Numbered from the stretch's first letter, positions 3,180 to 23,537 are shown. The stretch: DNA of 64,000 bases from Promethearchaeota archaeon (GCA_030599585.1 JAUVNS010000002.1:160001-224000); one strand, 5' to 3'. A program made the numbers and translations. The notes: generated from the sequence alone by a model not told the origin.

Positions 3180-3277
3180 CTATTCTTCATGTAATATCTT
3201 ATTATTCATAAAACTTACTTAATAAAAAGTGTTCAGAGAACTGAATAGTTTCTACGTGAAAAAGTTTTTCAATTTTT

Positions 3278-4348
3278 TTAAAGGAGGTTAACTTTCAAAT
3301 CAGTAATTTCTTTTTCCTTTTCAGAAAGCGTTGTTTTTAACTTGTTTATGTTCTTCTGTAAATTTTCAACTAATCCCGCCATAGAGTTGCCCGGATCTGA
3401 AGTAGGAGATATTGCCGATAACTTTAAATCAGAAATCATGCTTTCCTTCTCCCTGACTTTGTTTTCAAGATTTTTAATTTTCTGTTCATATTCTTCAGAA
3501 CTAACAATTGGTGCTTTTTTCTTACTACTACTGAGAGAATTTTGTAATTCTGCAAGTTGTTTCTTAAGTAATTCGTTTTCTTTTTCTAGAGGTTCAAATT
3601 CATTATTCGTAAGATTAATATCCTTTCCTTCTAACGCACTTTTTAATTCGTTCTTTTCTTTCTTTAAATTTTCGACAATGCGTTTGTATTTAGTCAAATC
3701 TGATTGAAGATCTTGACATAAAGTTTCAAGAGGTTGAGTAGAAGTCTCCGGAGGCATAGGTTTAATTACTTTTTGTTCAGGAGCACTCGCTTGGACTACA
3801 AAGTCGACGGGTTTGCTTTTTAATTCTTCCTCGTAGTTTTGGGTTACTTGTTCTACTTTTTTTGATAATTCTGTCGTCTTACGCTCTAGATTTTTTATGA
3901 TTATATCCCTTTTCGATATCTCCGATTTCAATTCCTCAATAATTCCATTTTCTGCAATAGAACTCCTTCCAGTTTGTGTAGTTGCTTGAGATTGTAAATT
4001 TGAGATTAAATTATCTTTTGATTTTATTTCCGCATCCTTCTCTAATAATAACATTACCATGCTTTTAACTTTGTTTCCCAATTCTGAATTTTCTTGCTTT
4101 AGTTTATTTAATTGCATAGCAATTTCTGCTACAGCTTCGTCTTTTTCAATTTTAAGCTTTTCTTTTTCTCCAACTGCTTTTTTAAGAATTTCCTCAGATT
4201 TAGTAATTAAATTTATGTTCGCAGCAATTTTATTTCGTAATTGTTCGTTCTCTTTTTGGATATCTCCAATTATGGAGGGTGTGTTCTCTGTTGCTAATTT
4301 CTTTTTCCATAAAGAGATAAAATCTTCAGTTTTTTTTTCTTCTGACAT
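3278..4348 (-). CDS. Long coiled-coil hypothetical protein
   Basis: K/E/L heptad-rich segments broken by S/T/P linkers; ATG at 4348 (MSEEKK) preferred to the upstream TTG at 4390. Confidence 0.75.
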   Translation of the reverse strand: MSEEKKTEDFISLWKKKLATENTPSIIGDIQKENEQLRNKIAANINLITKSEEILKKAVGEKEKLKIEKDEAVAEIAMQLNKLKQENSELGNKVKSMVMLLLEKDAEIKSKDNLISNLQSQATTQTGRSSIAENGIIEELKSEISKRDIIIKNLERKTTELSKKVEQVTQNYEEELKSKPVDFVVQASAPEQKVIKPMPPETSTQPLETLCQDLQSDLTKYKRIVENLKKEKNELKSALEGKDINLTNNEFEPLEKENELLKKQLAELQNSLSSSKKKAPIVSSEEYEQKIKNLENKVREKESMISDLKLSAISPTSDPGNSMAGLVENLQKNINKLKTTLSEKEKEITDLKVNLL

Positions 4349-4427
4349 AGTCCATTTAAAACATATATTATTATTATTTAAATCAATCAAAGAATAATTA
4401 TTTTATTATAATACCGGAGAAATATTC

Positions 4428-5327
4428 CTAAATTATAACCGAATTTTCGAGTTTTAAAACTCCCGAAAAATAACCAACACAATATCCATATCCGCCCTTA
4501 ATATCGCTACTAGTATAATATTTTAACAATTCACCTTTATTTGCGTTTAATTTTTTACAAATTAACATTAAAGTCGTTATTGTTTGGGCTCCGCATACGG
4601 TTGTTTTTGAAGCAGCTGAAAGAGTCTTTTGGGGATTTAATTCTACAAAAGCATCAATAACATCTTGATCAAATTTTTTAAACTCACTTAATTGATTTGT
4701 ATCAAAAACCTCTTTATGTGACATATCAGACGATGCTACAATAACAATATCTTTATTTAACGCCTTAATTGATGCAGAAATATCAGAGGCTATTTTTTCA
4801 AATACGGCATAATCCCTTCTAATTCCAATTTTTAGTGTTACTATCTTTACATCTTTCTCTTTAGCACAATATTTAATGAAAGGTAACTGAATTTCAATAT
4901 TATGTTCTTGTTCCATGAAGCCGGTGAAAGCAGAACGATCTTCAACAATAATTTCACTGGTATCTAAAATCTTTTTAGACAATTCATCGTCAATTAGTAA
5001 GTTTCCTAAAGGTGTTTCCCAAGCTCCATCCCCTAATAGGGCCACTTTTCCATAGCCAACATGGTCAGTTCCCAAAACAATAACAGTATCTGGGATTTTT
5101 TCTTTAAAGAGATTCAAGTAAGTGTAAGCTGCACATCTTCCAGAAAAGGCGTATCCTGCGTGAGGAGAAACTCCACCAATTATAGTTCTTGTATCTTGAT
5201 TTAATGTTTCAGGTAACAAACCGGGCCCAAATTCACGTTCAGAAAAATTATATTCTAAATCTCTAATTAAATCTTCACGATTTTTAGGATACCAACTGCC
5301 TGCGTGTGATGCTTTTCTTATTTCCAT
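4428..5327 (-). CDS. MEMO1 family protein (AmmeMemoRadiSam protein B)
   Basis: HAGSWYP, SPHAGYAFSG, WETPLG, EHNIEIQLPF, ASSDMSH, CG motifs; GGTGA SD upstream. Confidence 0.92.
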   Translation of the reverse strand: MEIRKASHAGSWYPKNREDLIRDLEYNFSEREFGPGLLPETLNQDTRTIIGGVSPHAGYAFSGRCAAYTYLNLFKEKIPDTVIVLGTDHVGYGKVALLGDGAWETPLGNLLIDDELSKKILDTSEIIVEDRSAFTGFMEQEHNIEIQLPFIKYCAKEKDVKIVTLKIGIRRDYAVFEKIASDISASIKALNKDIVIVASSDMSHKEVFDTNQLSEFKKFDQDVIDAFVELNPQKTLSAASKTTVCGAQTITTLMLICKKLNANKGELLKYYTSSDIKGGYGYCVGYFSGVLKLENSVII

Positions 5328-5433
5328 TTTCTCACCTTGTTATAAATAACATTTGTTTAAAAATTTATATACTTTCATCTGGTGGAAACCAAATTGAAAG
5401 AATTATTAAACAATTTTTAATAGATCTTATTAG

Positions 5434-6036
5434 ATGACTGACGAAAAAGAACCTCCTATTTCACTAGAAGATATTGACGAAAAGGATATCCCAGAAAGAA
5501 TACCAACGACATATTTAAACAACCGCGTGATTGTTTTTAACCCCCTCTTTGCCTCGTATTTATATGTTAAAATGAAATTTTTTGGGTCTCCTTTGGGGAT
5601 AAGTAAACCCCGTTTAGAGTATTTTTCTAAACCATCAGAGTTGTCCTTAATCGAAGCCCTATTTTTGCTGAAAAATGATAAAATCACAATATTTGACCCA
5701 AAACTAGATAAGAATTACTCTTATGACGAATTTTATGATATTTGTAAAAAAATTCACCATAAATTTGAAGAGAAGTTCGTAATTTACCAAGATTTAAGGC
5801 ACAAAGGCTATATTCCTCGTCCAGGACTTAAGTTTGGAGCCGATTTCGTAGTATATAAAAAAGGTCCTGGACTAGAACATTCACCATTTATTGCACACGT
5901 ATTACCGAGTGATAGCAAGATTACAGCTATTGATATGGTTCGAGCTGGAAGATTGGCTACATCGGTTCGGAAGAAATTTGTCATCGCCAACCCTCTAACC
6001 ATGAGTTACTACTTCTTTGAATGGTTTAAACCTTAG
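5434..6036 (+). CDS. endA: tRNA-splicing endonuclease, single catalytic unit
   Basis: LSLIEALFL, YQDLRHKGY, GLKFGADFVVY, HS, RLATSVRKK (Y/H/K catalytic triad present). Confidence 0.93.
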   Translation: MTDEKEPPISLEDIDEKDIPERIPTTYLNNRVIVFNPLFASYLYVKMKFFGSPLGISKPRLEYFSKPSELSLIEALFLLKNDKITIFDPKLDKNYSYDEFYDICKKIHHKFEEKFVIYQDLRHKGYIPRPGLKFGADFVVYKKGPGLEHSPFIAHVLPSDSKITAIDMVRAGRLATSVRKKFVIANPLTMSYYFFEWFKP

Positions 6037-6112: not shown

Positions 6113-8098
6113 ATGGCTAATGATGTAGTATTAGCATTGGTTCTTGGAGTAATTTTTGGGTGTGTATTTTTCATTGTAGATATATATAATGAAAATAAAA
6201 CCAAAGAGATAAATACATCACTTATTGCTGGTGTAACGATTACGTATTTTTTTATCATATTATTACCTGAAATAAACTCGGGTTTGGCAGAACTTTCATT
6301 TGGATTGTATAAATTTATAGGTATTCTAATTGGGTTTTCTTCTATTCATCTTACCGAAAAATTTATATTGTTAAGAGTAGAGCAAAAATCTCAATTAAAA
6401 TTGAAGGAAATATTTAAAGAAGAAGCCGAAATAATCGAAAAAGAAAAAGAGTTTGAGAAATCTTTAATAAATAAATTAGTGGAGCCCAACAAAGATAATC
6501 AAACAGTTGAGAATTTGGTCGAAAAATTATATGCATTAGAAGAAATAAATAAAATCCAAGAAATATGGGTTAAAGAAGAACAGAGATTAAAGGAGAAAAT
6601 CTACAAAGCCGACCTTGAAAAACTCTCCTATTTAAATATTCTCTCGGCAACAAAAGAAGTAAGTAACGTACAAAAATTATGTGCAGAAGAAGAAAGGATG
6701 CTTGAGAGTTCTTTACTGAAACATTTATTGAAAAAAAACCATGAAAATCCTGCCTATAATCTTTTAACCAAAAAATTGCAGATGATTGCAGAAATACGGC
6801 AAAAAAATATAGAATTTGGTGAAAAAGCTGACAACCTGATAGCAGTTTTAATAACAAGTTTAATGGCAGATAAACGAGATAAAATTTCAAAAGAAAAATT
6901 TCTTGAAAAACTGAATACAATAGATAACATACATCAAATACTAGATGCAGGTTTAAAGGCTGAAAAAGAAATCGGTAAAGTAAAAATTGGAGATACACGT
7001 GTTCAACAATCAGAAAAGAGAGCAACCAAACATTTATATGCCTTAGAAGTGTTAAGAAAAATTCAAGAAGCATGTATAGAAAAAGAAAAAAGACTTCAGC
7101 ATGAATTAATGGAAATTGGGCATAACCGGCTTTCGCTTCTAAATAAATTTTCAGCCTTAAAAGAGATAAGTAGAATTAGGTTGAAATGTGTAAAAGAAGA
7201 AATGAATCTTGAGAAAAAACTAATTAAGAAAGACCAGGATATTTTTTCAAAGAAACATTTAATCGAAAAACTAAATTCATTAAAGGAAATAAGTAGAACC
7301 CTAGAAGAAACATTATTAAAAGAGAGAATTCTTATGAATTCATTGATCCATAAACTAATGAAGAATGATGAACACGACAAACTTTCGATAAAAGAATTAA
7401 ATGAAAAAATATCTGAGTTAGGAGAACTACATAAAATCCAAGAAGATCGTGTTGACCAGGAAAGAAACATCGAGAGATCTATAATTTTTAGTATATCAAG
7501 AGATGATGGTGAAAGATTTTCATTACAAGAATTAGCCATGAAATTAGATACATTCTGTCAGCGTGAAGAAGAACTTGAAATACAAGATTATAATTTAAAA
7601 GTTAAGATACAAAACCGTATAAACGAGCATTTAGATGAACTTCACGGCTACACCAATTTTGTTTATCATTTAATTATTGGAATCATACTTTTCGAACTGC
7701 TAACATTTGATTTTATTACTGCAATTATGTTTTTTATTTTTGCACTATTCAAAGCGTTGACATCAAAAACATCAAATGATATTCAACTCTTTCCCGATAT
7801 AGAAGTAAATGAAGAACATAATATCCGACTTTATCAAAAGATCATAATAGCATCCGCTGGTTTAATAGGAATTTTTATTGGTTTAATGTTAAACGTTGTG
7901 TTTAACCTTCCAATGGAAATAATATTTGTGTTGTTTTCATTCATTTCAGGAGTCATCCTCTACACAATTATTAGAGAAGTTTTACCCGAAAACGAAAGCG
8001 GACGACCTCTCTATTTCTTATTAGGCATAGTCTTATTCTTAATAATAATAATTACATTCCAATCCGTTTTTTCTTTATTTACTCCTCCTGGTCTTTAA
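6113..8098 (+). CDS. ZIP-like metal transporter with a large helical-repeat insertion
   Basis: N-terminal 3 TM (SLIAGVTITYFFIILLPEI; GFSSIHLTEK) and C-terminal TMs (HGYTNFVYH; SGVILYTIIREVLPE) separated by ~420 charged residues. Confidence 0.7.
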   Translation: MANDVVLALVLGVIFGCVFFIVDIYNENKTKEINTSLIAGVTITYFFIILLPEINSGLAELSFGLYKFIGILIGFSSIHLTEKFILLRVEQKSQLKLKEIFKEEAEIIEKEKEFEKSLINKLVEPNKDNQTVENLVEKLYALEEINKIQEIWVKEEQRLKEKIYKADLEKLSYLNILSATKEVSNVQKLCAEEERMLESSLLKHLLKKNHENPAYNLLTKKLQMIAEIRQKNIEFGEKADNLIAVLITSLMADKRDKISKEKFLEKLNTIDNIHQILDAGLKAEKEIGKVKIGDTRVQQSEKRATKHLYALEVLRKIQEACIEKEKRLQHELMEIGHNRLSLLNKFSALKEISRIRLKCVKEEMNLEKKLIKKDQDIFSKKHLIEKLNSLKEISRTLEETLLKERILMNSLIHKLMKNDEHDKLSIKELNEKISELGELHKIQEDRVDQERNIERSIIFSISRDDGERFSLQELAMKLDTFCQREEELEIQDYNLKVKIQNRINEHLDELHGYTNFVYHLIIGIILFELLTFDFITAIMFFIFALFKALTSKTSNDIQLFPDIEVNEEHNIRLYQKIIIASAGLIGIFIGLMLNVVFNLPMEIIFVLFSFISGVILYTIIREVLPENESGRPLYFLLGIVLFLIIIITFQSVFSLFTPPGL

Positions 8099-10814: not shown

Positions 10815-11591
10815 TTGACTTTTATAGGTATTGATATTGGTTCTCTTGCCACAAAAATCGTTTTGCTCAGCGAGGGAAAGATGATAGATCACCGTACAGA
10901 ACGCTCAACTTATGATTTTAAAAAGATAGGTCATAATTTATTCGATGACTTATTGGATAAAAATAGTTTGAAAAAATCTGATGTGTTCGTTATGAGTACC
11001 GGTTATGGGCGGAATACGATCGATATTGCTGATGATCGGGTCACTGAAATTACTGCCCACGCAAAAGGTACGCAATACTTCTTCCCAGATGTACATTCAG
11101 TTATAGACATTGGTGGTCAAGACAGTAAGGCTATTGTAATATCTAATAAAACGGGAAATGTTGTAGATTTTCAAATGAACGATAAATGCGCAGCAGGGAC
11201 TGGCAGATTTTTAGAAGTTATGGCTCATGCTTTGGAGGTTCCCATTGACCAATTTGGAGATTTAGCTTTAAGATCTAACAAATCGGCTTCAATAAGTTCC
11301 ACATGTACTGTTTTCGCAGAGAGTGAAGTCATAAGCTTGTTTGCGAGGGGCGCTTCAAAAGAAGAAATTGCCAGTGGGATTCATAGATCAATTGCGAGAA
11401 GAGTTGCTGGAATGTCTAAACGTATCGGAGTTGGGCCAAAATTAGTTTTTTGTGGTGGAGTTGCGTTAAACCCTGCTGTGAAAAAATATCTTGAAGACGA
11501 ACTTGGATATGAAGTCGAAATTCCCGAATTTCCACAATTAACGGGAGCTATCGGTGCTGCTTTAATCGCAGAAGCGAACAACTCGCAGTAG
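10815..11591 (+). CDS. hgdC: 2-hydroxyacyl-CoA dehydratase activator (HgdC/HadI ASKHA ATPase)
   Basis: GIDIGS, TGYGR, DIGGQDSK, MNDKCAAGTGRFLE, STCTVFAESEVIS. Confidence 0.93.
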   Translation: MTFIGIDIGSLATKIVLLSEGKMIDHRTERSTYDFKKIGHNLFDDLLDKNSLKKSDVFVMSTGYGRNTIDIADDRVTEITAHAKGTQYFFPDVHSVIDIGGQDSKAIVISNKTGNVVDFQMNDKCAAGTGRFLEVMAHALEVPIDQFGDLALRSNKSASISSTCTVFAESEVISLFARGASKEEIASGIHRSIARRVAGMSKRIGVGPKLVFCGGVALNPAVKKYLEDELGYEVEIPEFPQLTGAIGAALIAEANNSQ

Positions 11592-11703
11592 ATGAGAAAT
11601 ATTCTTTTGACTTAATATTTTTATCTATATTTTAAGTCGGTAAACTTTTTTAAAGAATTAATCTTTTTCTGACAAATAACATTAAACAGTTGACTTTATC
11701 ACG

Positions 11704-12843
11704 ATGGATGACTCTAATCTACTATCTGATTTTACTTTCTTCCTTAAGGAAAAAAAACAGGAAGGGATCAAAATTGTCGCTTACTTATCCCACGATAACA
11801 TTCCCGAGGAGTTGATTGACGCTGCTGGTTTTTTCCCCTTAAGGTTAATCTTTGGAGGGAACGATGAACTAATGGACGCAAGTCACGATTATTTGCCACC
11901 TTCCACATGTGCATTTGCACAATCATGTATTGGACTATTTTCAATTAAGCCAAACTACTACAAGTTTTTGGAATTGGTTGATTACATCATAGTTTCCAAT
12001 CACTGCGTATCAGACATTTGCGTTTCAGAAATCATTTCCAAATACTTTAACATTCCTCGTTTGAATTTTTATGTTTCGTATACAAAGAATGAAAACAGTC
12101 TAAAATATTTTAAGCTCGAATTACAAGACTTTAGAAATCAACTTGAATCTACTTTGGATAGAAAGATATCCGATGAGGATATACACAACAGCATATTAAA
12201 ATTCAATAATTTCAAAAAAAAGTTATTAGAAATTAATGAACTGGAAATGTCAGGCTCGGAAAAATTGAAATTAATTCATAAATCAATGCTATTTGGACCA
12301 GATTTTCTTCACGACTTAGAAAATTTGATTCAAAAATTTAAAGACGCACCTCAACCAGTTTCCAATACAGCTATAGAAGTTTTACTTACGGGGTGCTCTA
12401 TCTTTATTGATGACAACATGATAGACTTGATTGAGGAGGGGGGAGGTAACATTGTTTTTTTTGATACCTGGATTGGGAACCATTATTATTCACAAATTAT
12501 CGAAGATAATCTAATAGATATAGAGAAAGATCCTTTGGATTTGTTAGTTCTTAAGTTTAAAAATAATATTTATAGTGACCATAGCGTACCTGACTTTCTT
12601 GAACGGAAAGTATCACATATTCTGAGATATTCTGAAAATTACGCAAAAAATAAAGGCAGAAAGTTAGGGGTCATCAATCACATAATTAAGTTTTGCGACC
12701 ATATTTCGCTCATGTCTTCTTTCTTAAAGGATACATTACAAAAAAAGGGGATTCAAGTACTAAATTTAGAAAGAGATTATTCCAGAGCTAACCGTGGCCA
12801 ATTATCAACAAGAATAGAAGCGTATTTGGAGATGATGAAATGA
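11704..12843 (+). CDS. 2-hydroxyacyl-CoA dehydratase subunit (HgdB-like)
   Basis: IPEELIDAAG, three Fe-S Cys (STCAF, NHC, KFCD), C-terminal GQLSTRIEAYLEM. Confidence 0.85.
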   Translation: MDDSNLLSDFTFFLKEKKQEGIKIVAYLSHDNIPEELIDAAGFFPLRLIFGGNDELMDASHDYLPPSTCAFAQSCIGLFSIKPNYYKFLELVDYIIVSNHCVSDICVSEIISKYFNIPRLNFYVSYTKNENSLKYFKLELQDFRNQLESTLDRKISDEDIHNSILKFNNFKKKLLEINELEMSGSEKLKLIHKSMLFGPDFLHDLENLIQKFKDAPQPVSNTAIEVLLTGCSIFIDDNMIDLIEEGGGNIVFFDTWIGNHYYSQIIEDNLIDIEKDPLDLLVLKFKNNIYSDHSVPDFLERKVSHILRYSENYAKNKGRKLGVINHIIKFCDHISLMSSFLKDTLQKKGIQVLNLERDYSRANRGQLSTRIEAYLEMMK

Positions 12844-14198
12844 GTCTAATTGCCGATGAGATAGTATCTTTTAGTTCAGTATTACGTATTGCTTACAATC
12901 TGTTAAACGGGAGAAACTACCTAAAAAGGAAGAAATTTCGAGATAAAGAAAAATTAGTAGCTATAACTTTGCCGTTTTCGGATTTAGCTTTTGCTGCAGG
13001 CACGGTACCAGTTTTACCAATAAGGATGCACAAATTTGAAATAAGTCAATACCTAAATTACCTAGGTTCTGCTTCTAGTATTTTTGGGTGGAATTCTGTT
13101 TCGAATTTTCTAAGCTTTGTTAAAAATCTGGGCATAGAACAAGTAAGTAAAATTATTGACGATATTATAGAGGGTGTAATTGATACCATTAATATAAAAT
13201 TCAACGAAATGTATGACGTAGGAGTTGAAAATGGAATTTCAAGTGATTTCTGTTACGGATTAAAAAGTTTAGCTGGCATGTATTTTACCAAAGGTCAAAA
13301 TGTTGATGCTAGTTTAAATGTTACTATTCGATGTAGTGCGTATAATAAATATTTAGAGTCTTTGAAATCAATTCATGAAGGACCAAAACAAATCTGGGTT
13401 GATATTCCACCGAGAAATCTGGGAAACTCAGTAGAATTACTCACTGATAATATTTCAAACGCCTTAAACGAGTTCGAGAAGCTAACAGGAAATAAGGTAT
13501 CAGATAACGATTTGAGAGCCCATTTTAAAATTGGAAATCAAGTAAAAAGGTCGTATAAGAACATAATTTACGATATAAGTGCTTCTGACTTTTATCCTTG
13601 CAATCCCGCAACTTTTAGTGAAATTATGGCACTGTTAAGTATTACATTTCAAGATTATAACTCTAATGCGGTTCGATATAGAGACAACATCGTATCCCTA
13701 GAAAAAGAGATGAGAGAAAGAATTAGAAAGGGAGTTGGTATGGATGTGTCAAAAATGCCGAGGATTTTCGTGACCCCCATGTTCGGAGGATGGGAACCCA
13801 AAAGTCATGATATAATATATGAGTTAGGAGGAAGAGCTTTATACGCTGATTGGGAACTACTAAAATTCTTGGAAGAAATACCAACTGGATCACACACAAA
13901 TCCTTCTGAAGAATACGCACGATTTCTTATGAATGCTACAGAAACAGGAATAGGTTGTGATAATGACAAATTAACAGATTCCTACTTGGAAATGGCAAGA
14001 AAGCTAAATGCAGACGGTATAATATTCTTTCAATTATTTGGGTGCCATTCCATCTCAAATTGTTATGCGATGTTAAGAGAGAAAGTAAGACGAGAACTTG
14101 AAATACCGATTACAGCAATTACTTTCAATAAAATTGGGGATAATGTAGAGCAAGTGAAGACAAGACTCGGTGCCTTTATGGAAATGTTTAAATTTTAG
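12840..14198 (+). CDS. 2-hydroxyacyl-CoA dehydratase subunit (divergent HgdA-like)
   Basis: Cys in SDFCY, IRCS, FGCH; C-terminal EQVKTRLGAFMEM; ATGA overlap with the previous gene. Confidence 0.8.
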   Translation: MSLIADEIVSFSSVLRIAYNLLNGRNYLKRKKFRDKEKLVAITLPFSDLAFAAGTVPVLPIRMHKFEISQYLNYLGSASSIFGWNSVSNFLSFVKNLGIEQVSKIIDDIIEGVIDTINIKFNEMYDVGVENGISSDFCYGLKSLAGMYFTKGQNVDASLNVTIRCSAYNKYLESLKSIHEGPKQIWVDIPPRNLGNSVELLTDNISNALNEFEKLTGNKVSDNDLRAHFKIGNQVKRSYKNIIYDISASDFYPCNPATFSEIMALLSITFQDYNSNAVRYRDNIVSLEKEMRERIRKGVGMDVSKMPRIFVTPMFGGWEPKSHDIIYELGGRALYADWELLKFLEEIPTGSHTNPSEEYARFLMNATETGIGCDNDKLTDSYLEMARKLNADGIIFFQLFGCHSISNCYAMLREKVRRELEIPITAITFNKIGDNVEQVKTRLGAFMEMFKF

Positions 14199-14259
14199 AT
14201 ATTTATCCTTATTTTGGAAGAAATTAAGTTTAATAATAACGTCATGAAGTAAAACAAAT

Positions 14260-15366
14260 TTAATGACTGATTTTTGCTTTTGAACTTCTTTTTATTTCAA
14301 ACACTTCTTCTCCTTTCATTTGTTTCGTTATATAGTCAGCCAAATTTAAGTTCAAAATGTTTCTTCCCTCTTTTTTAAAATCACATCCACATAAAATCGA
14401 AGATAAATTTATGATAGAATCAATTATAGGTGTAGAAATTTCTAAGAATTCTCCTAATGACGCCATAGGTACAAGTCCAGTTGGAATATCCTCAGTGAAA
14501 TATCTAGTTATTAATTCTTTTGGAGCAGCAATGTTTTTATATGCTTTTACTTTTTGAATAGCTTTATAGATACTGTTTGCTTTAAATCCATAAGATTTCT
14601 CCACCCATTTACAAAAATTTATTTGTTTTAAATTTAACTTTTCAAAAATCTTTCTGAATTCCATTTGAAGAGTCTCAAGAATTTCACAAGTATGTGAAGA
14701 TGCCCCTTGTGCATAAAATTTGAACGTTCTTCCATAATCTATTGCACTAGCGTTCATTAATGAGAGAGTTGGATGCAATAACATCCCAATATTATTTAAT
14801 GTAACTTGCAGATAATTATCATTAGGATTCATTTGGGGAAAAACATCTTTCAATGTATCACTGATGAAAAACGTATCCTTCTCTGGAAAAGCCGAAAATT
14901 CAACAGAATCCTTGAATGTAAGAATTTGGACTTTATTTTTTTTCAATTGTCTTGATGTAAAAAGTAATGTTTGAGTTTCAGCAATAAAAATAGGGAGATT
15001 CCCTCTTTCATTTTCTATTATACTTCTAACCTCTACAGCTCCAAAAGTTCTACCTGGATTCAACAATATTGTCTGATCGTTTGTTAAAAAAGGTGCAATG
15101 TTTTTAGCAATACTTTTATGTGCTGAAGCAGGAGTTACTATTAAAATAATATCTACATCCTTAACGGCCAAATGTAATTTTTGTGTAACTAGATCAATGG
15201 GAAAAAAACCTTTTAATTTTCCTTTTGCTTTTATACCTCCCTTCTTTTTGATTTCACAAATTCTAGAATATGAACGGTTATAAAGGTTCACAGAATGTCC
15301 TTTAGATGATAAATATGCCGCAAACGCTCGACCACCATTTCCGGCTCCAATAACACAGAATCTCAT
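14260..15366 (-). CDS. NAD(P)-dependent opine (octopine/nopaline-type) dehydrogenase
   Basis: VIGAGNGG Rossmann motif, LNPGRTFGA, AETQTL, NIGMLLHP, RYFTEDIPTGL. Confidence 0.88.
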   Translation of the reverse strand: MRFCVIGAGNGGRAFAAYLSSKGHSVNLYNRSYSRICEIKKKGGIKAKGKLKGFFPIDLVTQKLHLAVKDVDIILIVTPASAHKSIAKNIAPFLTNDQTILLNPGRTFGAVEVRSIIENERGNLPIFIAETQTLLFTSRQLKKNKVQILTFKDSVEFSAFPEKDTFFISDTLKDVFPQMNPNDNYLQVTLNNIGMLLHPTLSLMNASAIDYGRTFKFYAQGASSHTCEILETLQMEFRKIFEKLNLKQINFCKWVEKSYGFKANSIYKAIQKVKAYKNIAAPKELITRYFTEDIPTGLVPMASLGEFLEISTPIIDSIINLSSILCGCDFKKEGRNILNLNLADYITKQMKGEEVFEIKRSSKAKISH

Positions 15367-17117
15367 TTATCCAACACCTTTGTGATGGATTTTTCTTTTT
15401 GTTGTAATGAATTAGTAATATTTTTAAATGGGCTATTAAAAATAATGTCTTTTATTCTTTCAAGTTCATCGTAAGGTTTTTGTTGAGACTCATTCCATGA
15501 GTAGCAAGCACCATTAATTAAATTGGTTTTAATTTTACCTAACGCAAATTTATTATTGTTCAAATGTGGAGCGTCAAATATACCATATTTTACGAGTCGA
15601 TTTAAAACTTTATAATTGGTATATGGACTTTTCGATTCATCTTCATTTTTTGTTAAATGTGGTATTAAGTCGACTATCCATTTGGCTTGTCCTATTAATT
15701 CTTCTTTCCTTTCCTCAATTTTTTTATCTATAATGTTAATTTTACTAGAATAAACGTTATCTATAACTTGATCCACTATTTTACAACTTTCTATTATATT
15801 TTCTGGTCGAGCTGTATGGCTAGCTTCAGAAAAACTAACTACATGAACAATGTCTGGTCTAATAGCTAATTGAACAAACGTCGCTAGAGCAAGCTGTCCT
15901 TTGGCTTTATCCAAATCTAATGGGAAACTTGCTAATCCCGTCCGAACTTGTTTAATTATCGTAAAGTTCTCATTGACGAGCGTTTGAAGTAACTCATCTT
16001 TAGCGAGAATTTTTGCTAAGTCCATATCAAGTGAACTTGATGGAGGTGTATTAAACATATATTGTGCTATAAAATTTTTGACGCCTAATTTTTTCGCTAT
16101 AATTCCACTTAAATACATATCGGCAACAGCTATAGCATCAGGAGCATTTCGAAGGCTCCATTGATGTGGATCGTTTACTTCAACGGGAATATTATGCTTT
16201 CCGTACCATTCTATTGCGTTTAGATGCTGTTTAATCGATTCTTTTAAAGTTAAAGGCCCTCTTCTATCCATTTGATTGAACCAAAAAATAGGAATTGCCG
16301 CCCAAGCATTTTGAATTGTATCTCGATACAATTTTCCTAATTTAATGAAATCGCGTGTTCCAGCATATATCCTTAACATAGGATAGTTTCCAGTTAATCT
16401 TGCTTGATGGAGCTTTTCGAAATCTTGTTGAGTGCGCAAAGGAACCCCGCCCGCTCCAGATGATTCTTTATCTTGATTTTCAGGGTGGAAGTAATTTGCT
16501 TGCGTATTTTGATCGGGCGCAATTGAAATAACATCTAAGACTTTTGCTTTAGCAATTTTTTTTATTCCTTCGATTGTTTCATCGAAATTAGGTAATCCAA
16601 AGTGCGCTCTAATTACAGGATAAGGTTTCTTCCATTTTATTCGAGAAATAATGTCCATAGGGATTTCTGTTTTACTTTCTGATTTTCCTTTCTCATTTCT
16701 TAAGATAGAAATTAATTCAAATTTTGATTCCCCTCCGACAAAATATTCATCGATCCCTTCATATTTTCTTGCAATCTCAACTACTTCAGGTGTTCCCGCA
16801 AAAAATAATTTTTTTGGTTTTTTTTCTAATTTTATAAAACTTTTGAAAAATTCATTTAGTAAAGGTCTAACAGTGTCTGCCGTTAAACGATAACTTAACC
16901 CTACAATGTTAGGGTCATACTTTTTAATTTGATCGATAACAATTGAAATAGGGGTAGCAGGTCCTAAAAATAAATTATTATAACCTAACTGTTTTGAAAT
17001 TTGAATGAAATTATATGTACCAGCTACATGAACGCATTGTCCTATACATGCAGTTAAAATTCTTTTATTTTTTTTTTTCTCTAAATATGTGTTAGTCATC
17101 ATTATTGAATAAAACAC
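15363..17117 (-). CDS. Cobalamin-dependent protein: B12-binding domain fused to a glutamate-mutase-E-like barrel
   Basis: GQCVHVAG (DxHxxG variant), LGP, GLSYRL, FAG in the N-terminal domain; barrel segment RAHFGLP...DVISIAPDQNTQ; start may be ATG at 17102 or 17099. Confidence 0.72.
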   Translation of the reverse strand: MFYSIMMTNTYLEKKKNKRILTACIGQCVHVAGTYNFIQISKQLGYNNLFLGPATPISIVIDQIKKYDPNIVGLSYRLTADTVRPLLNEFFKSFIKLEKKPKKLFFAGTPEVVEIARKYEGIDEYFVGGESKFELISILRNEKGKSESKTEIPMDIISRIKWKKPYPVIRAHFGLPNFDETIEGIKKIAKAKVLDVISIAPDQNTQANYFHPENQDKESSGAGGVPLRTQQDFEKLHQARLTGNYPMLRIYAGTRDFIKLGKLYRDTIQNAWAAIPIFWFNQMDRRGPLTLKESIKQHLNAIEWYGKHNIPVEVNDPHQWSLRNAPDAIAVADMYLSGIIAKKLGVKNFIAQYMFNTPPSSSLDMDLAKILAKDELLQTLVNENFTIIKQVRTGLASFPLDLDKAKGQLALATFVQLAIRPDIVHVVSFSEASHTARPENIIESCKIVDQVIDNVYSSKINIIDKKIEERKEELIGQAKWIVDLIPHLTKNEDESKSPYTNYKVLNRLVKYGIFDAPHLNNNKFALGKIKTNLINGACYSWNESQQKPYDELERIKDIIFNSPFKNITNSLQQKEKSITKVLDK

Positions 17118-17439
17118 CCTTTAAACAATATTTGAACTACGCATTAAAGAAACTTACTTAATAACGAGTAGTGGTTATTAAAATTCGATCGAATAATAAC
17201 AGTATATAACCAGTTGCTCTAGTTATATCTCTAATTTATTGGATACAAAAATATATTCTAATATTTAGATAATTAATACCGTTTCAAGTTTCAATGCAAA
17301 ATTCTTCCTATCATACTAAATCTATTATAATATTTAAAATTAAGCGTCCTTTAAATAGAATAAGAGCCAAATTTTAATTCTGCAATTATTTAGATGCTTT
17401 TTTTAGAACTTTTTTTAATAAAAATTAAAAATTATCCTT

Positions 17440-17454
17440 AAAAAAAAAAAAAAA
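17440..17454 (-). terminator. T15 run downstream of the racemase gene, probable archaeal oligo-T terminator
   Basis: 15 consecutive A on the + strand, ~75 nt after the racemase stop. Confidence 0.4.
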
Positions 17455-17460
17455 TTCATA

Positions 17461-17521
17461 TTTTCATTTTCTTTTTTTAAAATTTGTTTCGTTACCATTC
17501 AGAATTAAATCATAAACCCAT
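17461..17521. repeat. ~60-bp imperfect direct repeat, copy 1
   Basis: ttttcattttctttttttaaaatttgtttcgttaccattcagaattaaatcataaacccat matches 19663-19721. Confidence 0.85.
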
Positions 17522-17527
17522 GGAATT

Positions 17528-18613
17528 TTAAATATCGATAAATTTCTTATGGATATAGGGACTAGTCATTGCTCTTAAAAGAGCTTCATAATTTAAATCA
17601 AAATGCAATTTTTGTCCAATCTGAAATTGATTATCTCTTATATCTACAACTAAGTAGTCGCTTGAAGCTCCAAGAATATTAATACTTTCTTTAGGATTTA
17701 ATCCTTTTACTGCAATATCTTGTCTACCTATATTTAAAAGTGCTTGTGTTCTAATTGTAACGCTTTTTTTTCCGTTGTTAATTTTTTTATTATAAGTTTG
17801 GACACTTTCCCCAAATGCATTTGATACAATAATCCCTTTGGGGATCATAGATCTTTGTTTTAATTCAACAATTTCTGTTATTAACCTAAAAGCGTCTGTA
17901 TAAAGATTTGGAATTGGTTCATAATTTATTGTTTCTTTTCCTAGAAATATAGCTTCTCCAATTCTAAAATTATTTATTTCACCAATGTTTTTACACGATT
18001 TAAACCAGTTAAAATTTGCAGAATTTCCTCCTGAAACAAATTCTAATTCCAATTCAAATTTATCCTTGATCCTAAAGACTAATTTTGAAAATTCATTCAT
18101 ATTTTCATCTGTCGGGATGATACCACCAAAACATTTGAAATTTGTACCAATTCCACTTAAATTTATATTTTTTAGTTTTAAAATCTCTTCGACAAAAAAT
18201 TCAATATTGAAGATATTTATTCCTTCTCTTAAATCTCCCATATCTACCATTAGAATTATATTATGTATCTTTTTTTGTTTAACGGCTTCATTTGAAAGCA
18301 TTCTTATGGTCTTTAATTCTGAATTTAGGCTATAATTTGCGTATTTAACAACAAGAGGAATTTCAGTAATGCTTGGAATACGAATTAAAACAAATTGAGC
18401 TCTAATATTATTTTTTTTCATTTTAATAATATTGTTAATTCGTGAATCTCCTAAATACTCTATTCCTCCTTGAACCAATGTCATTGCAATAGTAGGGTTT
18501 CCTAAGACAAGTTTTGTAATTCCAATAATAGATACATTTCGCTGAGTTAAAAGATTCTTTAATAATTTTGCGTTATGTCTAATTTTTCTCAAATTTATTT
18601 CAAGTATTGCCAT
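17528..18613 (-). CDS. PLP-dependent alanine/ornithine racemase family (Orr/YhfX-like)
   Basis: GITK (PLP Lys), GDSRI, MVDMGDLREG, GTNFKCFGG, SGGNS, RIGEAIFLG, GASSD. Confidence 0.88.
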   Translation of the reverse strand: MAILEINLRKIRHNAKLLKNLLTQRNVSIIGITKLVLGNPTIAMTLVQGGIEYLGDSRINNIIKMKKNNIRAQFVLIRIPSITEIPLVVKYANYSLNSELKTIRMLSNEAVKQKKIHNIILMVDMGDLREGINIFNIEFFVEEILKLKNINLSGIGTNFKCFGGIIPTDENMNEFSKLVFRIKDKFELELEFVSGGNSANFNWFKSCKNIGEINNFRIGEAIFLGKETINYEPIPNLYTDAFRLITEIVELKQRSMIPKGIIVSNAFGESVQTYNKKINNGKKSVTIRTQALLNIGRQDIAVKGLNPKESINILGASSDYLVVDIRDNQFQIGQKLHFDLNYEALLRAMTSPYIHKKFIDI

Positions 18614-18655
18614 TTTAATTCACATAATACAATTTGTTTTTAGTTTGAATGAAAG

Positions 18656-19642
18656 TTATCCAATTCTTCTTAATGCTTCTTTTATAATTTCATCTAAGAA
18701 TTCACTACTTTTTTTGTTTTCTGCAATTGCCATAAAGCCCATGTAACTATGAGGTTTATCTTTTGGTGTACACATTAATCCTGCAAAACAATTTATTTCT
18801 AATAAAAAAGGACCTTCTTCTGATAAGATCATGTCTACACGACCATAATCTCTAAGATTTATCGCTTGAAATGCTGAAATAGCTAATTTCTGTAATTCTT
18901 TATACTGTTTCGGAGTTAATTTTGCAGGGCATTGGAATTTATCGTCATCTAACTCTTTTTTATTAAATGTTAAGAATTTTTCCTTTTCCTTGTGTATTAT
19001 TTCTAATAAAGGTAAGGCTCTAATCTTATTTCCATTACCAATAATTCCACATGTTATTTCCCTACCTTTTAAAAATTTTTCAATAAGAACAGGTTGATTT
19101 ATTGTGTTTAATCTTTTTTCAACTCCTTTAATTAATTCGTTATATGAACAGATAAGTGAGGATTCGTCGATTCCAGAACTTCCTCTCCCTTGAGAGGGTT
19201 TTATAAATAAAGGATAATCAAATGGCTTGTTTTTCTTAAAAATTTCACAATCCTCTTTTGATCTTGCTAAAATATAAGGTGATGTTGGTAATCCTTTTTT
19301 AAACCACAAGTCTTTAGTAAGAACCTTATCGGTTGCTATAACGCATCCAAAAAGATCAGACCCTACATAAGGTATCTCTAATTCTTCTAAAATAGCTGTT
19401 TCAACAATGCTGGATACATTAAATACGATATCAATGTCAAGACTTTTTAAATCAGAAATAATATTGTCGTTCCATTTTAATATTTTTACATCATAACCCG
19501 CTTCATTTAAAGCACTTAAATGATGTTCTACTTCTTGATTAGTTGTATCGATAATATTCTCGTTTTTAGCAAATTTCTCTTGTATTGAAAAATTTCCTCG
19601 TTTTTTCTCAAGTACGCAAATTTTTATTTTTTCCTTAGTCAT
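18656..19642 (-). CDS. D-Ala-D-Ala ligase-like ATP-grasp enzyme with a divergent substrate site
   Basis: IPYVGS, DKVLTK, PLFIKP..GSSGI, IEKFLKGRE, GRVD, LEIN; ATG 19642 used (TTG 19651 is an alternative). Confidence 0.82.
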   Translation of the reverse strand: MTKEKIKICVLEKKRGNFSIQEKFAKNENIIDTTNQEVEHHLSALNEAGYDVKILKWNDNIISDLKSLDIDIVFNVSSIVETAILEELEIPYVGSDLFGCVIATDKVLTKDLWFKKGLPTSPYILARSKEDCEIFKKNKPFDYPLFIKPSQGRGSSGIDESSLICSYNELIKGVEKRLNTINQPVLIEKFLKGREITCGIIGNGNKIRALPLLEIIHKEKEKFLTFNKKELDDDKFQCPAKLTPKQYKELQKLAISAFQAINLRDYGRVDMILSEEGPFLLEINCFAGLMCTPKDKPHSYMGFMAIAENKKSSEFLDEIIKEALRRIG

Positions 19643-19662
19643 CTTGATCAAATTTTTTCACA

Positions 19663-19721
19663 TTTTCATTTTCTTCTTTTAAAATTTGTTTCGTTATCAT
19701 TCAGAATAAACTTAAACCCAT
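19663..19721. repeat. ~60-bp imperfect direct repeat, copy 2
   Basis: ttttcattttcttcttttaaaatttgtttcgttatcattcagaataaacttaaacccat; lies ~20 nt upstream of the ligase start. Confidence 0.85.
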
Positions 19722-19869
19722 ATAATTTACCTAATAAATTTTATTACATTTAAATAACTAATTTTAAATTATAACTGTAGAAAATTCTCATTTTATATTA
19801 GTAACTAGAGATGAACCTAAAACGAGCATATACGCTGACGATGTCCTTAGTTTTACATCCGTTCTAAAA

Positions 19870-21186
19870 ATGGCGTCAAATTTCTTAACGGGTAGAGATT
19901 ACTTAAAAAAGAAAAAATTTAGAGAAAAGAAGAAGTTAATTTCAGTTGCCTTAGGATTTCCAGATTTAGCTTTTGCTGTTGGAGCAGTTCCAGTTTTTCC
20001 AATTCGAATGGAAACCTTCGAATTTAGCAAGTATTTGATGCCTTTACAATCTGCTACATCTGTATTAGGTTGGGAATTGACATCAAAATTTTTGGATTTT
20101 GCTCGTCAGTTCGATGTTCTAAAAATTGTTGATAAAATTCTTGAAGATGTTATTACTTCGATAAACAAGAAATATAATCAAATGTACGAATTAGGCGTCA
20201 GTAATGGCGTTCCTTCGGAATTATGTTATGGGATTAACGCTCTTTATGGAATGCATAAATCTAAGGGTAAGAATTTAGACGCTAATCTTACATTCGCAAT
20301 GCGATGTGGCAGTTGGAATACTTTTTCTGAATCGTTAAAAACGACAGTACCGAGTCAAATCATAATCGATGTTCCTTCAAAGAATTCAGATAATGAGGAT
20401 ATTGCTTTAAAGGAAATGGTTAATAATGTCAAGAATGGAATTAGTGAACTAGAGAAGATAACGGGAAATTTCGTATCAGATAATAGTTTACAGAAGCAGT
20501 TTCGTATAGGCAATCAAGTGAAAAGATTTTATAAAACTATCCTTTACGAGATTGGCGATTCTAACTTTTATCCATGCAATCCCGCTACATTCGCAGAAAT
20601 TTTAGCGCTCTTAACTATCACTTTTCAAGATTATAATTCAAACTCTCAAAGATATTTAGAAAATCTGAGTAATTTAGTTAAAGAGATGAGAGAGCGGATT
20701 AGAAAGGGCATAGGGATGGATGTTTCTCATATGCCAAAAGTATTGTTTGCCCCAATGTACCAAGGATGGGAACCAGCCGTGCACGAAATTATCTATGAAT
20801 TAGGGGGTAGAATAATTTATGCCGATTGGGATATGTTAGGTTTTTTAGAAGAAATTCCCATATCTCAAAAATCTGATCCTATAGAAGAATATGCGCGTTT
20901 TCTACTAAACGCTTCAACCAAAGGAATAGGATGTGACGATGAAAACATGACTAATTCGTATTTAAAAGCTGCTGAAAACATGAACATTGATGGATTAATC
21001 TTCAATCAAGTATATGGGTGTCCATCAATCTCAAAGACTTATGAGAGGCTAAAAGAAAAACTAAAAGCGGAGTTTAACATACCAGCTATAAGTATTAATT
21101 TCAAAAAAATCGGTGATAATATAGAACAAGTTAGAAAACCTCTCATACCGTTTATGGAAAGATTAAAAGATACAAGAAATTTTTAA
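19870..21186 (+). CDS. Second divergent HgdA-like dehydratase subunit (paralog of 12840..14198)
   Basis: Shares FYPCNPATF.EI.ALL.ITFQDYNSN and EMRERIRKG.GMDVS; homology extends upstream to an ACG at 19822. Confidence 0.8.
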   Translation: MASNFLTGRDYLKKKKFREKKKLISVALGFPDLAFAVGAVPVFPIRMETFEFSKYLMPLQSATSVLGWELTSKFLDFARQFDVLKIVDKILEDVITSINKKYNQMYELGVSNGVPSELCYGINALYGMHKSKGKNLDANLTFAMRCGSWNTFSESLKTTVPSQIIIDVPSKNSDNEDIALKEMVNNVKNGISELEKITGNFVSDNSLQKQFRIGNQVKRFYKTILYEIGDSNFYPCNPATFAEILALLTITFQDYNSNSQRYLENLSNLVKEMRERIRKGIGMDVSHMPKVLFAPMYQGWEPAVHEIIYELGGRIIYADWDMLGFLEEIPISQKSDPIEEYARFLLNASTKGIGCDDENMTNSYLKAAENMNIDGLIFNQVYGCPSISKTYERLKEKLKAEFNIPAISINFKKIGDNIEQVRKPLIPFMERLKDTRNF

Positions 21187-21274
21187 ATGTGAATTCTCTA
21201 TCGTCTTTACAAGACAAATCCACATCCCTACGAGCTCGATTGGGTAAAACTCATCCCGTAAATTGCCCCGTTTT

Positions 21275-21844
21275 TTATTTTTTAAATAAATCACTCGGTT
21301 TCATCAGGTGAGGCTCGTCCTCGTCATCTTTCTTTTTCTTCTTTTTCCCAGGAACAAATCCGTAAACTTCTTGTTCCCCTGTTGTTGATGTAGAAGCTCC
21401 AGTTGGAGGGTTTAAGTTAATGTTAGCAGTTATTTGTTCTGGCGTTTGACCAATTGGAATTGATTGAGAAGCGGATTGGGCGTATACAGCTGTAGAACCT
21501 TTTAAAACTTTAAGTTCGCTAAGCACTTTCTCCAAATTCATTGATTGTACGCTTTTATTCATTGTGTCCATAATTTCTTGAAGTGATTTAGAAGTTTCTC
21601 TAAGCCCTTTAGGGTTAATTCCTGTAAGTAATGAATCTAAATTATCGTTGATATTTTCATTCAATTCTTTGAGAGAATCTAATACCGTGGACCAATGCTT
21701 GTTCATCTGAGATTCGATAGCAGTAATCATTTTAATTGTTTCGTTCATAAAATTGACATGGGCTTCATAACGTTCTTCGTCTTTGGCTCGAAGATCAGAA
21801 ATAAGCATTATCAACTTTCTTATTGCATCCTTCTCTTCACTCAC
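21275..21844 (-). CDS. Hypothetical helical protein with a disordered tail
   Basis: Amphipathic helices, S/T/Q/P linker, K6-DDEDE patch; GTG start. Confidence 0.75.
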   Translation of the reverse strand: MSEEKDAIRKLIMLISDLRAKDEERYEAHVNFMNETIKMITAIESQMNKHWSTVLDSLKELNENINDNLDSLLTGINPKGLRETSKSLQEIMDTMNKSVQSMNLEKVLSELKVLKGSTAVYAQSASQSIPIGQTPEQITANINLNPPTGASTSTTGEQEVYGFVPGKKKKKKDDEDEPHLMKPSDLFKK

Positions 21845-22046
21845 TCTTAAAATTCACTTCTTTTATTTTTCTTTATTATAGTATGATTATCTAATAATTT
21901 ATTTATATCTATTAGTAAAAAATAACAAAAAATTACACTTTGAGATTTAATCGATAATTATGTAAATAATAAAATTCATTTTTTAAATTAAGTGGTATAT
22001 TAAATAGTAATTAATCCTCAAAAATAGAATAAAAGTAAGAATTATC

Positions 22047-23537
22047 ATGCCTATCAAAGAACACTCCTGGCCAATCCATCCAAAAATATTCGAGATTAAT
22101 ACATGGCCATGGTTAACGAATTTTTCTGATATTTATGGTCGTAATATTAAATTAGATTCAATACCCATTGAATTAATAGATCAAGAATTAACTCTTTTTG
22201 ACGTCGTGTGGTTGATGGGTATTTGGGAGCGTAGTCCTATAGGGAGAGAAATTGCAATGAATCATGAGGGCTTACAGGAAGAATATCGTAAAGCATTGAG
22301 ATATTATAGCACTCAAGATGTTGTAGGATCTCCTTATTCGGTGTATTATTATCATATTAGTTCTCAATTAGGTGGTTCTGATGCACTTAAATCATTTAGA
22401 ACCGATTTAATGGATCGTGATATACTACTTATTTTAGATTACGTACCTAATCACGTTTCGATTGATCATCTCTGGACGCTTGAGAAATCGGATGTGTTTA
22501 TAAAAGGAACTTTAGAAGATTTAATGACCAAACCCTACGATTTTTTTTCTATTGGAAATATCGTTTATGCCCATGGGAAAGATCCTAATTTTCCCCCTTG
22601 GACGGACACAATACAAATAAATGCGTTTTCTTCTGAGGCTCGTTCCAAAGCGGTTAGCACTTTGCTTTCGATTGCAGAACAGTGTGATGGTGTTAGGTGT
22701 GATATGGCAATGTTAATGATTAATGATGTTTTCAGCAAAACTTGGGGTGATAAAGCTGGTTTACCTCTTGAAAAGGAGTATTGGGTTGATATCATATCTC
22801 AAGTTAAGGAAAAATATCCCAACTTTAAGTTTATTGCTGAAGTTTATTGGGATATGGAATGGGATTTAATTCAACAAGGTTTCGATTATTGTTACGATAA
22901 AAGATTATACGAGCGTTTACTACAATCTAATGTACAAGGTATAAAAGAACATCTTAACGCTGATTTAAGCTATCAAAATAAGCTACTTCGATTTATTGAA
23001 AATCACGACGAACCAAGAGCAGCTGCAGCATTTGGAGCGGATGCTTCGATGGCTGCTTCAATCATTACATCAACATTACCGGGTGCGAGACTAATTTGTG
23101 AAGGCCAAACACACGGATACGAAATCAAGATACCGATACAGTTAGGACGAGGGCCTACTGAAGAAGACAATATAGTTATTACTGAATTTTATGATAAACT
23201 TTTAAAGATACTTCCCGGAAGAGAGTGGGATGAAGCAAAATGGCTTTTATGCGATATAAAACCTACGGATTCAAACGATATTTCATTTAAAAATATTATC
23301 TCATATCAGTGGATAAAAGACGACCAGAGATTATTGATCGTAGTCAACTATAGCCCAAATCCTTCCAAGGCTCATATAATAATAAAAGAAATTGCTTATG
23401 GAATTTCTGATTGGTCCTTCACAGATTTATTAAATGAAAAAGAGTATAAGTATAACGGGAAAAATCTCAATGAAAATGGGTTATATGTCGAATTAGACAG
23501 TTGGAAGAGCCATATATTTGGCGTGAGAAAAAAATAA
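22047..23537 (+). CDS. GH13 alpha-amylase family glycoside hydrolase
   Basis: LDYVPNH, DGVRCDMA, IAEVYW, FIENHDE (D/E/D catalytic residues). Confidence 0.9.
   Translation: MPIKEHSWPIHPKIFEINTWPWLTNFSDIYGRNIKLDSIPIELIDQELTLFDVVWLMGIWERSPIGREIAMNHEGLQEEYRKALRYYSTQDVVGSPYSVYYYHISSQLGGSDALKSFRTDLMDRDILLILDYVPNHVSIDHLWTLEKSDVFIKGTLEDLMTKPYDFFSIGNIVYAHGKDPNFPPWTDTIQINAFSSEARSKAVSTLLSIAEQCDGVRCDMAMLMINDVFSKTWGDKAGLPLEKEYWVDIISQVKEKYPNFKFIAEVYWDMEWDLIQQGFDYCYDKRLYERLLQSNVQGIKEHLNADLSYQNKLLRFIENHDEPRAAAAFGADASMAASIITSTLPGARLICEGQTHGYEIKIPIQLGRGPTEEDNIVITEFYDKLLKILPGREWDEAKWLLCDIKPTDSNDISFKNIISYQWIKDDQRLLIVVNYSPNPSKAHIIIKEIAYGISDWSFTDLLNEKEYKYNGKNLNENGLYVELDSWKSHIFGVRKK

Follow-up and report, generated by a model that had tools for sequence, protein, structure and literature searches.

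A putative B12 mutase paired with an opine dehydrogenase and linked to a ligase-racemase module in a Promethearchaeota archaeon

Results

Four genes on the minus strand, at positions 14260-19651 of a 64,000-nucleotide stretch of DNA from a Promethearchaeota archaeon (GCA_030599585.1, JAUVNS010000002.1:160001-224000), encode a Ddl-like ATP-grasp ligase, an Orr-like racemase that uses pyridoxal phosphate (PLP), a single-chain B12 enzyme that we call the mutase, and an opine dehydrogenase. The whole stretch is referred to as the window; close homologues of its proteins carry the name Promethearchaeota. These genes make up two conserved two-gene modules, mutase-dehydrogenase and ligase-racemase, which are linked. 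What could four such enzymes do together? The reading that we favour, with a confidence little better than even, is that the two modules most likely serve a common amino-acid pathway, as yet undescribed and probably biosynthetic. The initial annotation of the window had proposed a candidate pathway combining all four enzymes, and that interpretation is partly supported: the four families do co-occur elsewhere, but a single four-gene unit is not obligate, most mutase-dehydrogenase pairs being found without ligase and racemase.

The four co-oriented open reading frames (ORFs) lie where the initial annotation had placed them. Direct reading of the sequence confirmed the ATGA through which the mutase stop and the dehydrogenase start share 4 nt, as well as the 42-nt spacer between ligase and racemase, and searches of Pfam, NCBIfam and the PDB upheld all four family assignments. 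Between the racemase and mutase genes lies a gap of 410 nt (17118-17527). Each pair recurs in other genomes, as does their combination, and the arrangement is therefore not due to chance.

The mutase and the opine dehydrogenase form a deeply conserved unit

The mutase gene (15363-17117; 584-aa ORF with a GTG start) is followed by the dehydrogenase gene (14260-15366; 368-aa ORF), and this pair is a deeply conserved unit. When 151 genomes of the phylum were searched with the B12 protein, about 55 of them gave a strong match, with identities of 66-73% in the window's family and 40-50% in other families. We took 34 Asgard reference loci with 8-kb flanks. An opine-dehydrogenase homologue adjoins the mutase in 32 of them, and the other two end at a contig edge at that point. 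In the window's family, as in a few further lineages (L058, L063), mutase precedes dehydrogenase; most other families have the reverse order, and the overlap between the two genes is mostly 4 nt. No consistently conserved third gene was found around the Asgard pair; genes for TFB and ArsR-type regulators accompany it in a minority of loci, which we treat as synteny.

A bacterial branch of the mutase, about 31% identical and of the same architecture, is represented by 54 reference-genome loci from many phyla. Here a gene of the Octopine_DH family lies on the mutase strand, adjacent or a few genes away, in 46 of the 54 loci, and most of the remainder are cut by contig ends.

The dehydrogenase itself is of the type of N-(1-D-carboxyethyl)-L-norvaline dehydrogenase (CENDH). 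It scores 131.8 bits against Octopine_DH (PF02317; cut-off 30), its N-terminal motif GAGNGG fits the Rossmann pattern GxGxxG, and it aligns along its full length with CENDH of Arthrobacter (PDB 1bg6; E 1.3e-75, residues 3-344). His198, Arg288 and Asp293 align with the catalytic His202, Arg292 and Asp297 of that enzyme. Among 42 partner dehydrogenases the catalytic His and Arg are invariant, and the Asp is retained in at least 90%.

Some individual loci deserve mention. One locus of the same genus (L038, G104:C23) holds two complete mutase-dehydrogenase pairs about 10 kb apart (3136-6005 and 13865-16707). The two-gene core, in the order dehydrogenase>mutase, occurs in three cultured haloalkaliphilic Bacillaceae (L100, L101, L108), namely Halolactibacillus alkaliphilus, Amphibacillus marinus and Natronobacillus azotifigens, and in L100 an AraC-family regulator gene lies upstream of the pair on the opposite strand. 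MFS transporters neighbour the pair in four loci. In a metagenome-assembled genome of the Tissierellia (L088), a cyclic di-AMP (c-di-AMP) riboswitch (7761-7888; 111 bits) lies just upstream of the mutase gene, and a second, cut copy (11458-11512) follows the dehydrogenase gene at the end of the locus. Of the 20 bacterial loci anchored on the mutase that were scanned, no other has a riboswitch beside the pair, and scans of 23 ligase-anchored loci and of the window gave none.

The B12 protein is probably an adenosylcobalamin-dependent isomerase

To judge from its family match and its modelled fold, the B12 protein is probably an adenosylcobalamin-dependent isomerase. Behind an N-terminal B12-binding domain, Pfam reports Met_asp_mut_E (PF06368) at 33.4 bits against a cut-off of 26.6. 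Kinship of the barrel could be recognised only through Pfam and fold comparison, because a PDB search with the mutase family profile reached B12 domains and no GlmE. In Foldseek, an AlphaFold model built from 71 sequences (pLDDT 92.6) comes closest to glutamate mutase E (6h9e_B; E 9.3e-18; TM-score on the target 0.66); ornithine and lysine aminomutases rank next, ahead of methylmalonyl-CoA mutase. The window protein reads CVHVAG at the first part of the base-off/His-on cobalamin motif DxHxxG...SxL...GG, with His30 as the motif His; His30 and Gly33 are each conserved in 69 of 71 family members, Ser75 and Leu78 each in 67 of 71. Asp284, Glu313 and Asp327 of the barrel are invariant in these members. 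The family as a whole comprises about 620 clusters at 50% identity and has members in Asgard archaea, gut Bacteroidales, Bacillota, Chloroflexota and other phyla.

Five natural fusions of the mutase were found (P0145, P0149, P0151, P0127, P0141). Three of them carry a MutL/GlmL reactivase-like domain, which fits a radical adenosylcobalamin enzyme. The homologue P0127 (863 aa) is fused to an ATP-grasp domain of RimK/GSH-S type, and one of the five has a weak match to Peptidase_M15_3 (E 5e-4). The host genome (G000; 4.85 Mb, with the window on contig C24) encodes a CobA-type adenosyltransferase (G000:C22:186894-187406) and three proteins of methylmalonyl-CoA-mutase type (G000:C50, C21, C22); searches of it for a PduO-type adenosyltransferase, a MutL/GlmL homologue and methylaspartase gave no match.

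Is the protein a glutamate mutase? On the sequence evidence it is not, because its score against the glutamate mutase equivalog is low (TIGR01503, 22.1 bits versus a cut-off of 390), because the host genome, rated 100% complete, has no match for methylaspartate ammonia-lyase (PF07476), and because the arginine claw is not conserved. When the mutase was aligned by hhalign with a genuine GlmE whose numbering is that of 1cb7_B, the GlmE residues Arg66, Arg100 and Arg149 aligned with mutase His172, Gln206 and Tyr251, and Glu171 with the variable residue 282, at a probability of only 50% and with a shift of a few residues possible. The three substitutes are themselves well kept in the family (His172 in 70, Gln206 in 69 and Tyr251 in 71 of 71 members). 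Like the glutamate mutase of Clostridium cochlearium (GlmS/GlmE with GlmL; EC 5.4.99.1, PDB 1cb7, 1ccw, 6h9e), the window protein combines a B12 Rossmann domain, with a probable His ligand, and a GlmE-type TIM barrel, and some members of its family are fused to a domain of GlmL/MutL type. Unlike glutamate mutase, it carries the S and E parts on a single chain, the S part being N-terminal, its family has an opine dehydrogenase as constant partner, and the Asp of DxHxxG is replaced by Cys in the window and in 31 of the 71 members, 38 having Asp. To our knowledge only a handful of adenosylcobalamin-dependent isomerases have been described, so that a widespread new family would be a genuine gain for B12 enzymology.

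The Ddl-like ligase and the Orr-like racemase form a second module

The ligase gene (18656-19651; 331-aa ORF) is the first of its module and is followed by the racemase gene (17528-18613; 361-aa ORF). Pfam finds Dala_Dala_lig_C (PF07478, 103 bits) in the ligase and does not report Dala_Dala_lig_N, and the protein falls below the NCBIfam cut-offs for Ddl (NF002378, 149 bits versus 243; TIGR01205, 144 versus 245.65). Its nearest solved structures are true Ddl enzymes, with E about 1e-23 over residues 86-293 only, and its subfamily spans Asgard and bacterial metagenome proteins at 57-75% identity. The racemase matches Ala_racemase_N (PF01168, 87 bits). Against the Orr model NF040742 it aligns over its full length (366.5 bits, E 1.3e-109, residues 4-357) versus 46 bits for Alr; because the Orr score lies below the curated cut-off of 480, the substrate of the racemase is uncertain.

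Of the 58 metagenome loci with room for it, 53 have a racemase gene immediately after the Ddl-like gene, and the pairing is found also in the genomes G003, G133 and G125. The module recalls the couple of Alr and Ddl in that a PLP racemase of Alr fold is joined to an ATP-grasp enzyme of the Ddl family. It differs in that both proteins score below the curated cut-offs, the N-terminal Ddl domain is not detected, and the racemase is much nearer to Orr; as far as we know, murein synthesis is not expected in an archaeal host.

An amidohydrolase gene of the HDAC family (PF00850) follows the racemase in 11 metagenome loci (L163, L169, L194, L195, L197, L199, L203 and others show this or neighbouring features), and in several other metagenome loci a second, divergent Ddl paralogue takes this place. 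In one 461-kb metagenome contig a group II intron (L162, 6990-7862; Rfam RF02012, RF00029) lies immediately 5' of the Ddl-like gene.

The two modules are linked in many gene orders

With the ligase as query, metagenome contigs yielded 80 loci, 71 of them not near-identical to the window. Homologues of the mutase and/or the dehydrogenase lie beside the ligase in 22 of these 71. Eleven loci have flanks of 3 kb or more on each side; of these, 7 have the mutase-dehydrogenase module next to the ligase. The expectation that the four families should meet again elsewhere was thus confirmed, in differing orders and in very different organisms. At least seven gene orders were seen for the combined modules, among them Ddl>B12>ODH, B12>ODH>Ddl>Rac, ODH>B12>Ddl>Rac, Ddl>Rac>ODH and divergent arrangements (B12, mutase; ODH, opine dehydrogenase; Rac, racemase). 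One locus (L205) has a tight run B12>Ddl>Rac with a 1-nt gap and a 10-nt overlap. Contig GC content ranges from 0.29 to 0.61 and mutase identity from 30 to 70%, and ligase adjacency requires at least five state changes on the mutase tree. The mutase is present in every one of the six Asgard reference genomes that have a close orthologue of the Ddl-like ligase (G000, G125, G003, G133, G115, G094; the last two with fragments). We had at first read the ligase-racemase pair as unrelated, from mutase-anchored Asgard loci; this reading was revised after the ligase-anchored search.

Among bacteria, other amide-forming ligases keep company with the core pair. Bacteroidales and some Clostridia have it inside loci that resemble capsule or O-antigen clusters (L073-L081, L085, L089, L103, L106, L117) and that hold a CapD-like enzyme, UDP-GlcNAc 2-epimerase, a glycosyltransferase and an initiating sugar transferase, and also an aldo-keto reductase, a PGA_cap protein and a DegT aminotransferase. 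Directly 5' of the mutase in these loci is an ATP-grasp enzyme of L-amino-acid-ligase type, and one to four "sugar-transfer associated" ATP-grasp genes are present as well. Over all 54 bacterial loci, an L-amino-acid-ligase-type gene accompanies the core pair in 22 and ATPgrasp_ST genes do so in 16; Mur ligases and Ddl-type genes accompany it in L082 and L093. A role in surface modification, one of several that the initial annotation had suggested, gains some support from the Bacteroidales loci.

The ligase-racemase cassette of the window is a later insertion

In the window, the ligase-racemase pair is a later insertion in this lineage. Direct repeats of about 74 bp, about 88% identical, bracket exactly the ligase and racemase genes as a 2.2-kb cassette. 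Copy 1 (17455-17528; repeat families D1 and D5) abuts the racemase stop codon, copy 2 (19657-19728) lies 6 nt upstream of the Ddl-like start, and the two are the only full-length matches in the whole genome. In the same-genus loci L032, L033 and L039 the cassette is absent, and the mutase gene directly faces the HGD-type gene that in the window lies beyond it. The insertion is common to the nearest relative (G125) and nine near-identical metagenome contigs.

Just past copy 1, on the coding minus strand, the sequence reads as a tract of 15 T residues (T15; 17440-17454), a candidate archaeal transcription terminator. Oligo-T tracts end archaeal transcription, and therefore the two pairs are probably separate transcripts in this organism.

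Discussion

A proposed pathway

How might the two modules work together? In the scheme that we propose, the mutase, with its probably His-on B12 domain and its GlmE-like barrel, would catalyse a radical 1,2-rearrangement of an amino acid other than glutamate. The translationally coupled dehydrogenase would then condense the rearranged amine with a 2-oxo acid, for example pyruvate, at the expense of NAD(P)H, yielding an N-(1-carboxyalkyl) amino acid. To this core the accessory enzymes would be added: the Orr-like PLP racemase would supply a D-amino acid, plausibly a basic one, and the Ddl-like ligase would couple it to the opine, whose 1-carboxyethyl part would look like D-alanine, to form a small pseudopeptide. 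The product would likely serve as a solute, a metal chelator or a building block of the cell surface. Cofactor form, substrates, order of steps and product are what we infer from the sequences.

A basic rather than an acidic substrate is suggested by the closeness of the racemase to Orr, the HDAC-type amidohydrolase in 11 loci, and the loss of the arginine claw together with the invariance of Asp284, Glu313 and Asp327. Biosynthesis is favoured because ATP-consuming ligases are the tightest partners, because of the glycan context in Bacteroidales and the MFS neighbours, and because of the one c-di-AMP riboswitch. Near-obligatory coupling to an opine dehydrogenase and recurrent amide-forming ligases predict an undescribed class of metabolite, which may matter for Asgard physiology, for the capsule chemistry of gut bacteria, and for stress protection or metal acquisition in sediment communities.

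Several observations weigh against this reading. No ligase or racemase lies within 8 kb of the mutase pair in any of the 34 Asgard reference loci, none of the 54 bacterial loci yielded a racemase gene, and in G003 and G133 the two modules are present on different contigs. The metagenome loci are related by descent and hence not independent, so that the co-occurrence counts overstate the support they give. In the window the cassette is flanked by repeats and followed by the T15 tract, and the pairs may be transcribed separately. For the mutase, the motif Asp is replaced by Cys in the window protein, the mapping of the active site has the 50% probability given above, and the cofactor could be another form of cobamide.

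Searchable literature yielded no description of the mutase-dehydrogenase pairing or of the four-gene cluster, in agreement with the earlier statement that no characterised pathway with this combination was known; the public names of these proteins are generic or wrong.

Comparison with metallophore and pyrrolysine synthesis

A racemase and an opine dehydrogenase also occur together in staphylopine synthesis. In the staphylopine and pseudopaline systems (CntM, CntK, CntL), however, the racemase CntK is DapF-like, whereas the window racemase has PLP fold type III, and the window has a B12 enzyme and an ATP-grasp ligase instead. A CntL-type gene, resembling nicotianamine synthase, is absent from the ten annotated ORFs of 10815-23537, which the search covered.

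The pyrrolysine route runs from a skeleton rearrangement by the glutamate-mutase-like PylB, through ligation by the Ddl-like ATP-grasp enzyme PylC, to a dehydrogenase step by PylD. The four enzymes of the window may follow a similar logic, as an analogy in the sense of resemblance only. PylB is a radical-SAM and not a B12 enzyme, PylD has another fold, and the conserved core in our case is mutase plus dehydrogenase without the ligase; the window proteins have no match to Pyl family models in Pfam or NCBIfam. With this analogy in mind one can formulate a bolder version of our proposal, which we offer tentatively and consider doubtful: the GlmE-like protein would found a new class of adenosylcobalamin isomerase, its substrate possibly a D-amino acid, a basic amino acid or an opine, and the four enzymes would make an as yet undescribed D-configured pseudopeptide or imino acid. 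They would be the B12 counterpart of PylB/PylC/PylD, and the product would be a solute, chelator or glycan decoration in Asgard archaea and many anaerobic bacteria.

Alternative explanations

Could the cluster be degradative instead? Racemase, B12 isomerase and C-N oxidoreductase would then break down a D- or basic amino acid or an opine, and the products might feed the neighbouring HGD-type genes, a possibility raised in the initial annotation as well. The closest precedent is the oxidative ornithine pathway of Clostridium sticklandii, in which Orr, the D-ornithine 4,5-aminomutase OraS/OraE and Ord place a racemase, a B12 isomerase and an NAD(P)-dependent C-N oxidoreductase side by side, as in the window. 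Ornithine and lysine aminomutases are the second-best structural matches of the mutase, opine dehydrogenases are reversible, and the HDAC-type amidohydrolase that follows the racemase in metagenome loci would suit such a role. The parallel weakens when the enzymes are compared one by one. The mutase belongs to another family: Pfam gives it no match to PF09043 (Lys-AminoMut_A barrel), and at no position of its B12 domain is Lys found in at least 60% of the 71 members, so that the conserved Lys with which aminomutases tether PLP is missing. The dehydrogenase is of opine type and not an Ord, and the window cluster has an ATP-grasp ligase and lacks the OrtAB thiolase. A canonical lysine 5,6-aminomutase alpha subunit (KamD; G000:C26:141856-143379, 909 bits) is already encoded elsewhere in the genome.

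The HGD-type neighbours likewise speak for degradation only at short range. On the two sides of the cluster (10815-14198 and 19870-21186) lie genes for an acyl-CoA dehydratase activase and three HGD-D family proteins, the latter scoring 146, 75 and 53 bits against the NCBIfam model "double-cubane-cluster anaerobic reductase" (cut-off 350). HGD-D family genes with an activator flank the mutase pair in same-genus relatives, and synteny of HGD and mutase pair extends to four loci of the same genus (L032, L033, L038, L039) and one of the same family (L031); among the 34 Asgard loci, within their 8-kb flanks, no locus from another family has HGD-type genes beside the pair. The proposed link to the flanking genes thus stands within the family and fails beyond it. 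Moreover, a degradative route can hardly accommodate an ATP-consuming ligase as the closest associate of the core pair, the Bacteroidales pair sits within loci for polysaccharide biosynthesis, and neither a thiolase nor any other downstream catabolic gene is conserved beside the core pair. We therefore regard a catabolic cluster as unlikely.

Quite unlikely, in our judgement, is the proposal that the two pairs are functionally unrelated and that a mobile ligase-racemase unit landed beside a mutase-dehydrogenase operon by chance. The direct repeats around the cassette, its absence from this site in same-genus relatives, the T15 tract between the pairs and the unlinked modules of G003 and G133 favour such an event. 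So does a Y2-type transposase gene (PF04986) found just 5' of the ligase in six metagenome loci, although these loci are probably closely related among themselves. Chance fails to explain, however, at least seven gene orders on contigs that differ so widely in GC content and mutase identity, and at least five state changes on the mutase tree. It also leaves aside that every Asgard reference genome with a close Ddl-like orthologue carries the mutase, and that other ATP-grasp ligases have joined the core pair independently in bacteria.

That the B12 protein is a methionine synthase, as NCBI names many homologues, or another corrinoid methyltransferase is scarcely credible and the name was rejected: although its B12 domain matches PDB 4jgi and 2yxb and resembles those of MetH and corrinoid proteins, Pfam and NCBIfam detect no homocysteine-binding, pterin-binding or cap domain, the catalytic domain has the fold of GlmE and the adenosylcobalamin isomerases, some homologues are fused to MutL/GlmL reactivase-like domains, and the constant partner is an opine dehydrogenase.

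Finally, a minor observation concerns the surroundings of the ligase-racemase pair in Asgard genomes where it stands apart from the core. A gene for an EamA-family transporter and a PIN-domain gene lie near the unlinked pair of G003 (L065, G003:C40, 7692-11056), and the same two types of gene lie near a lone racemase gene in G138 (L067, G138:C5).

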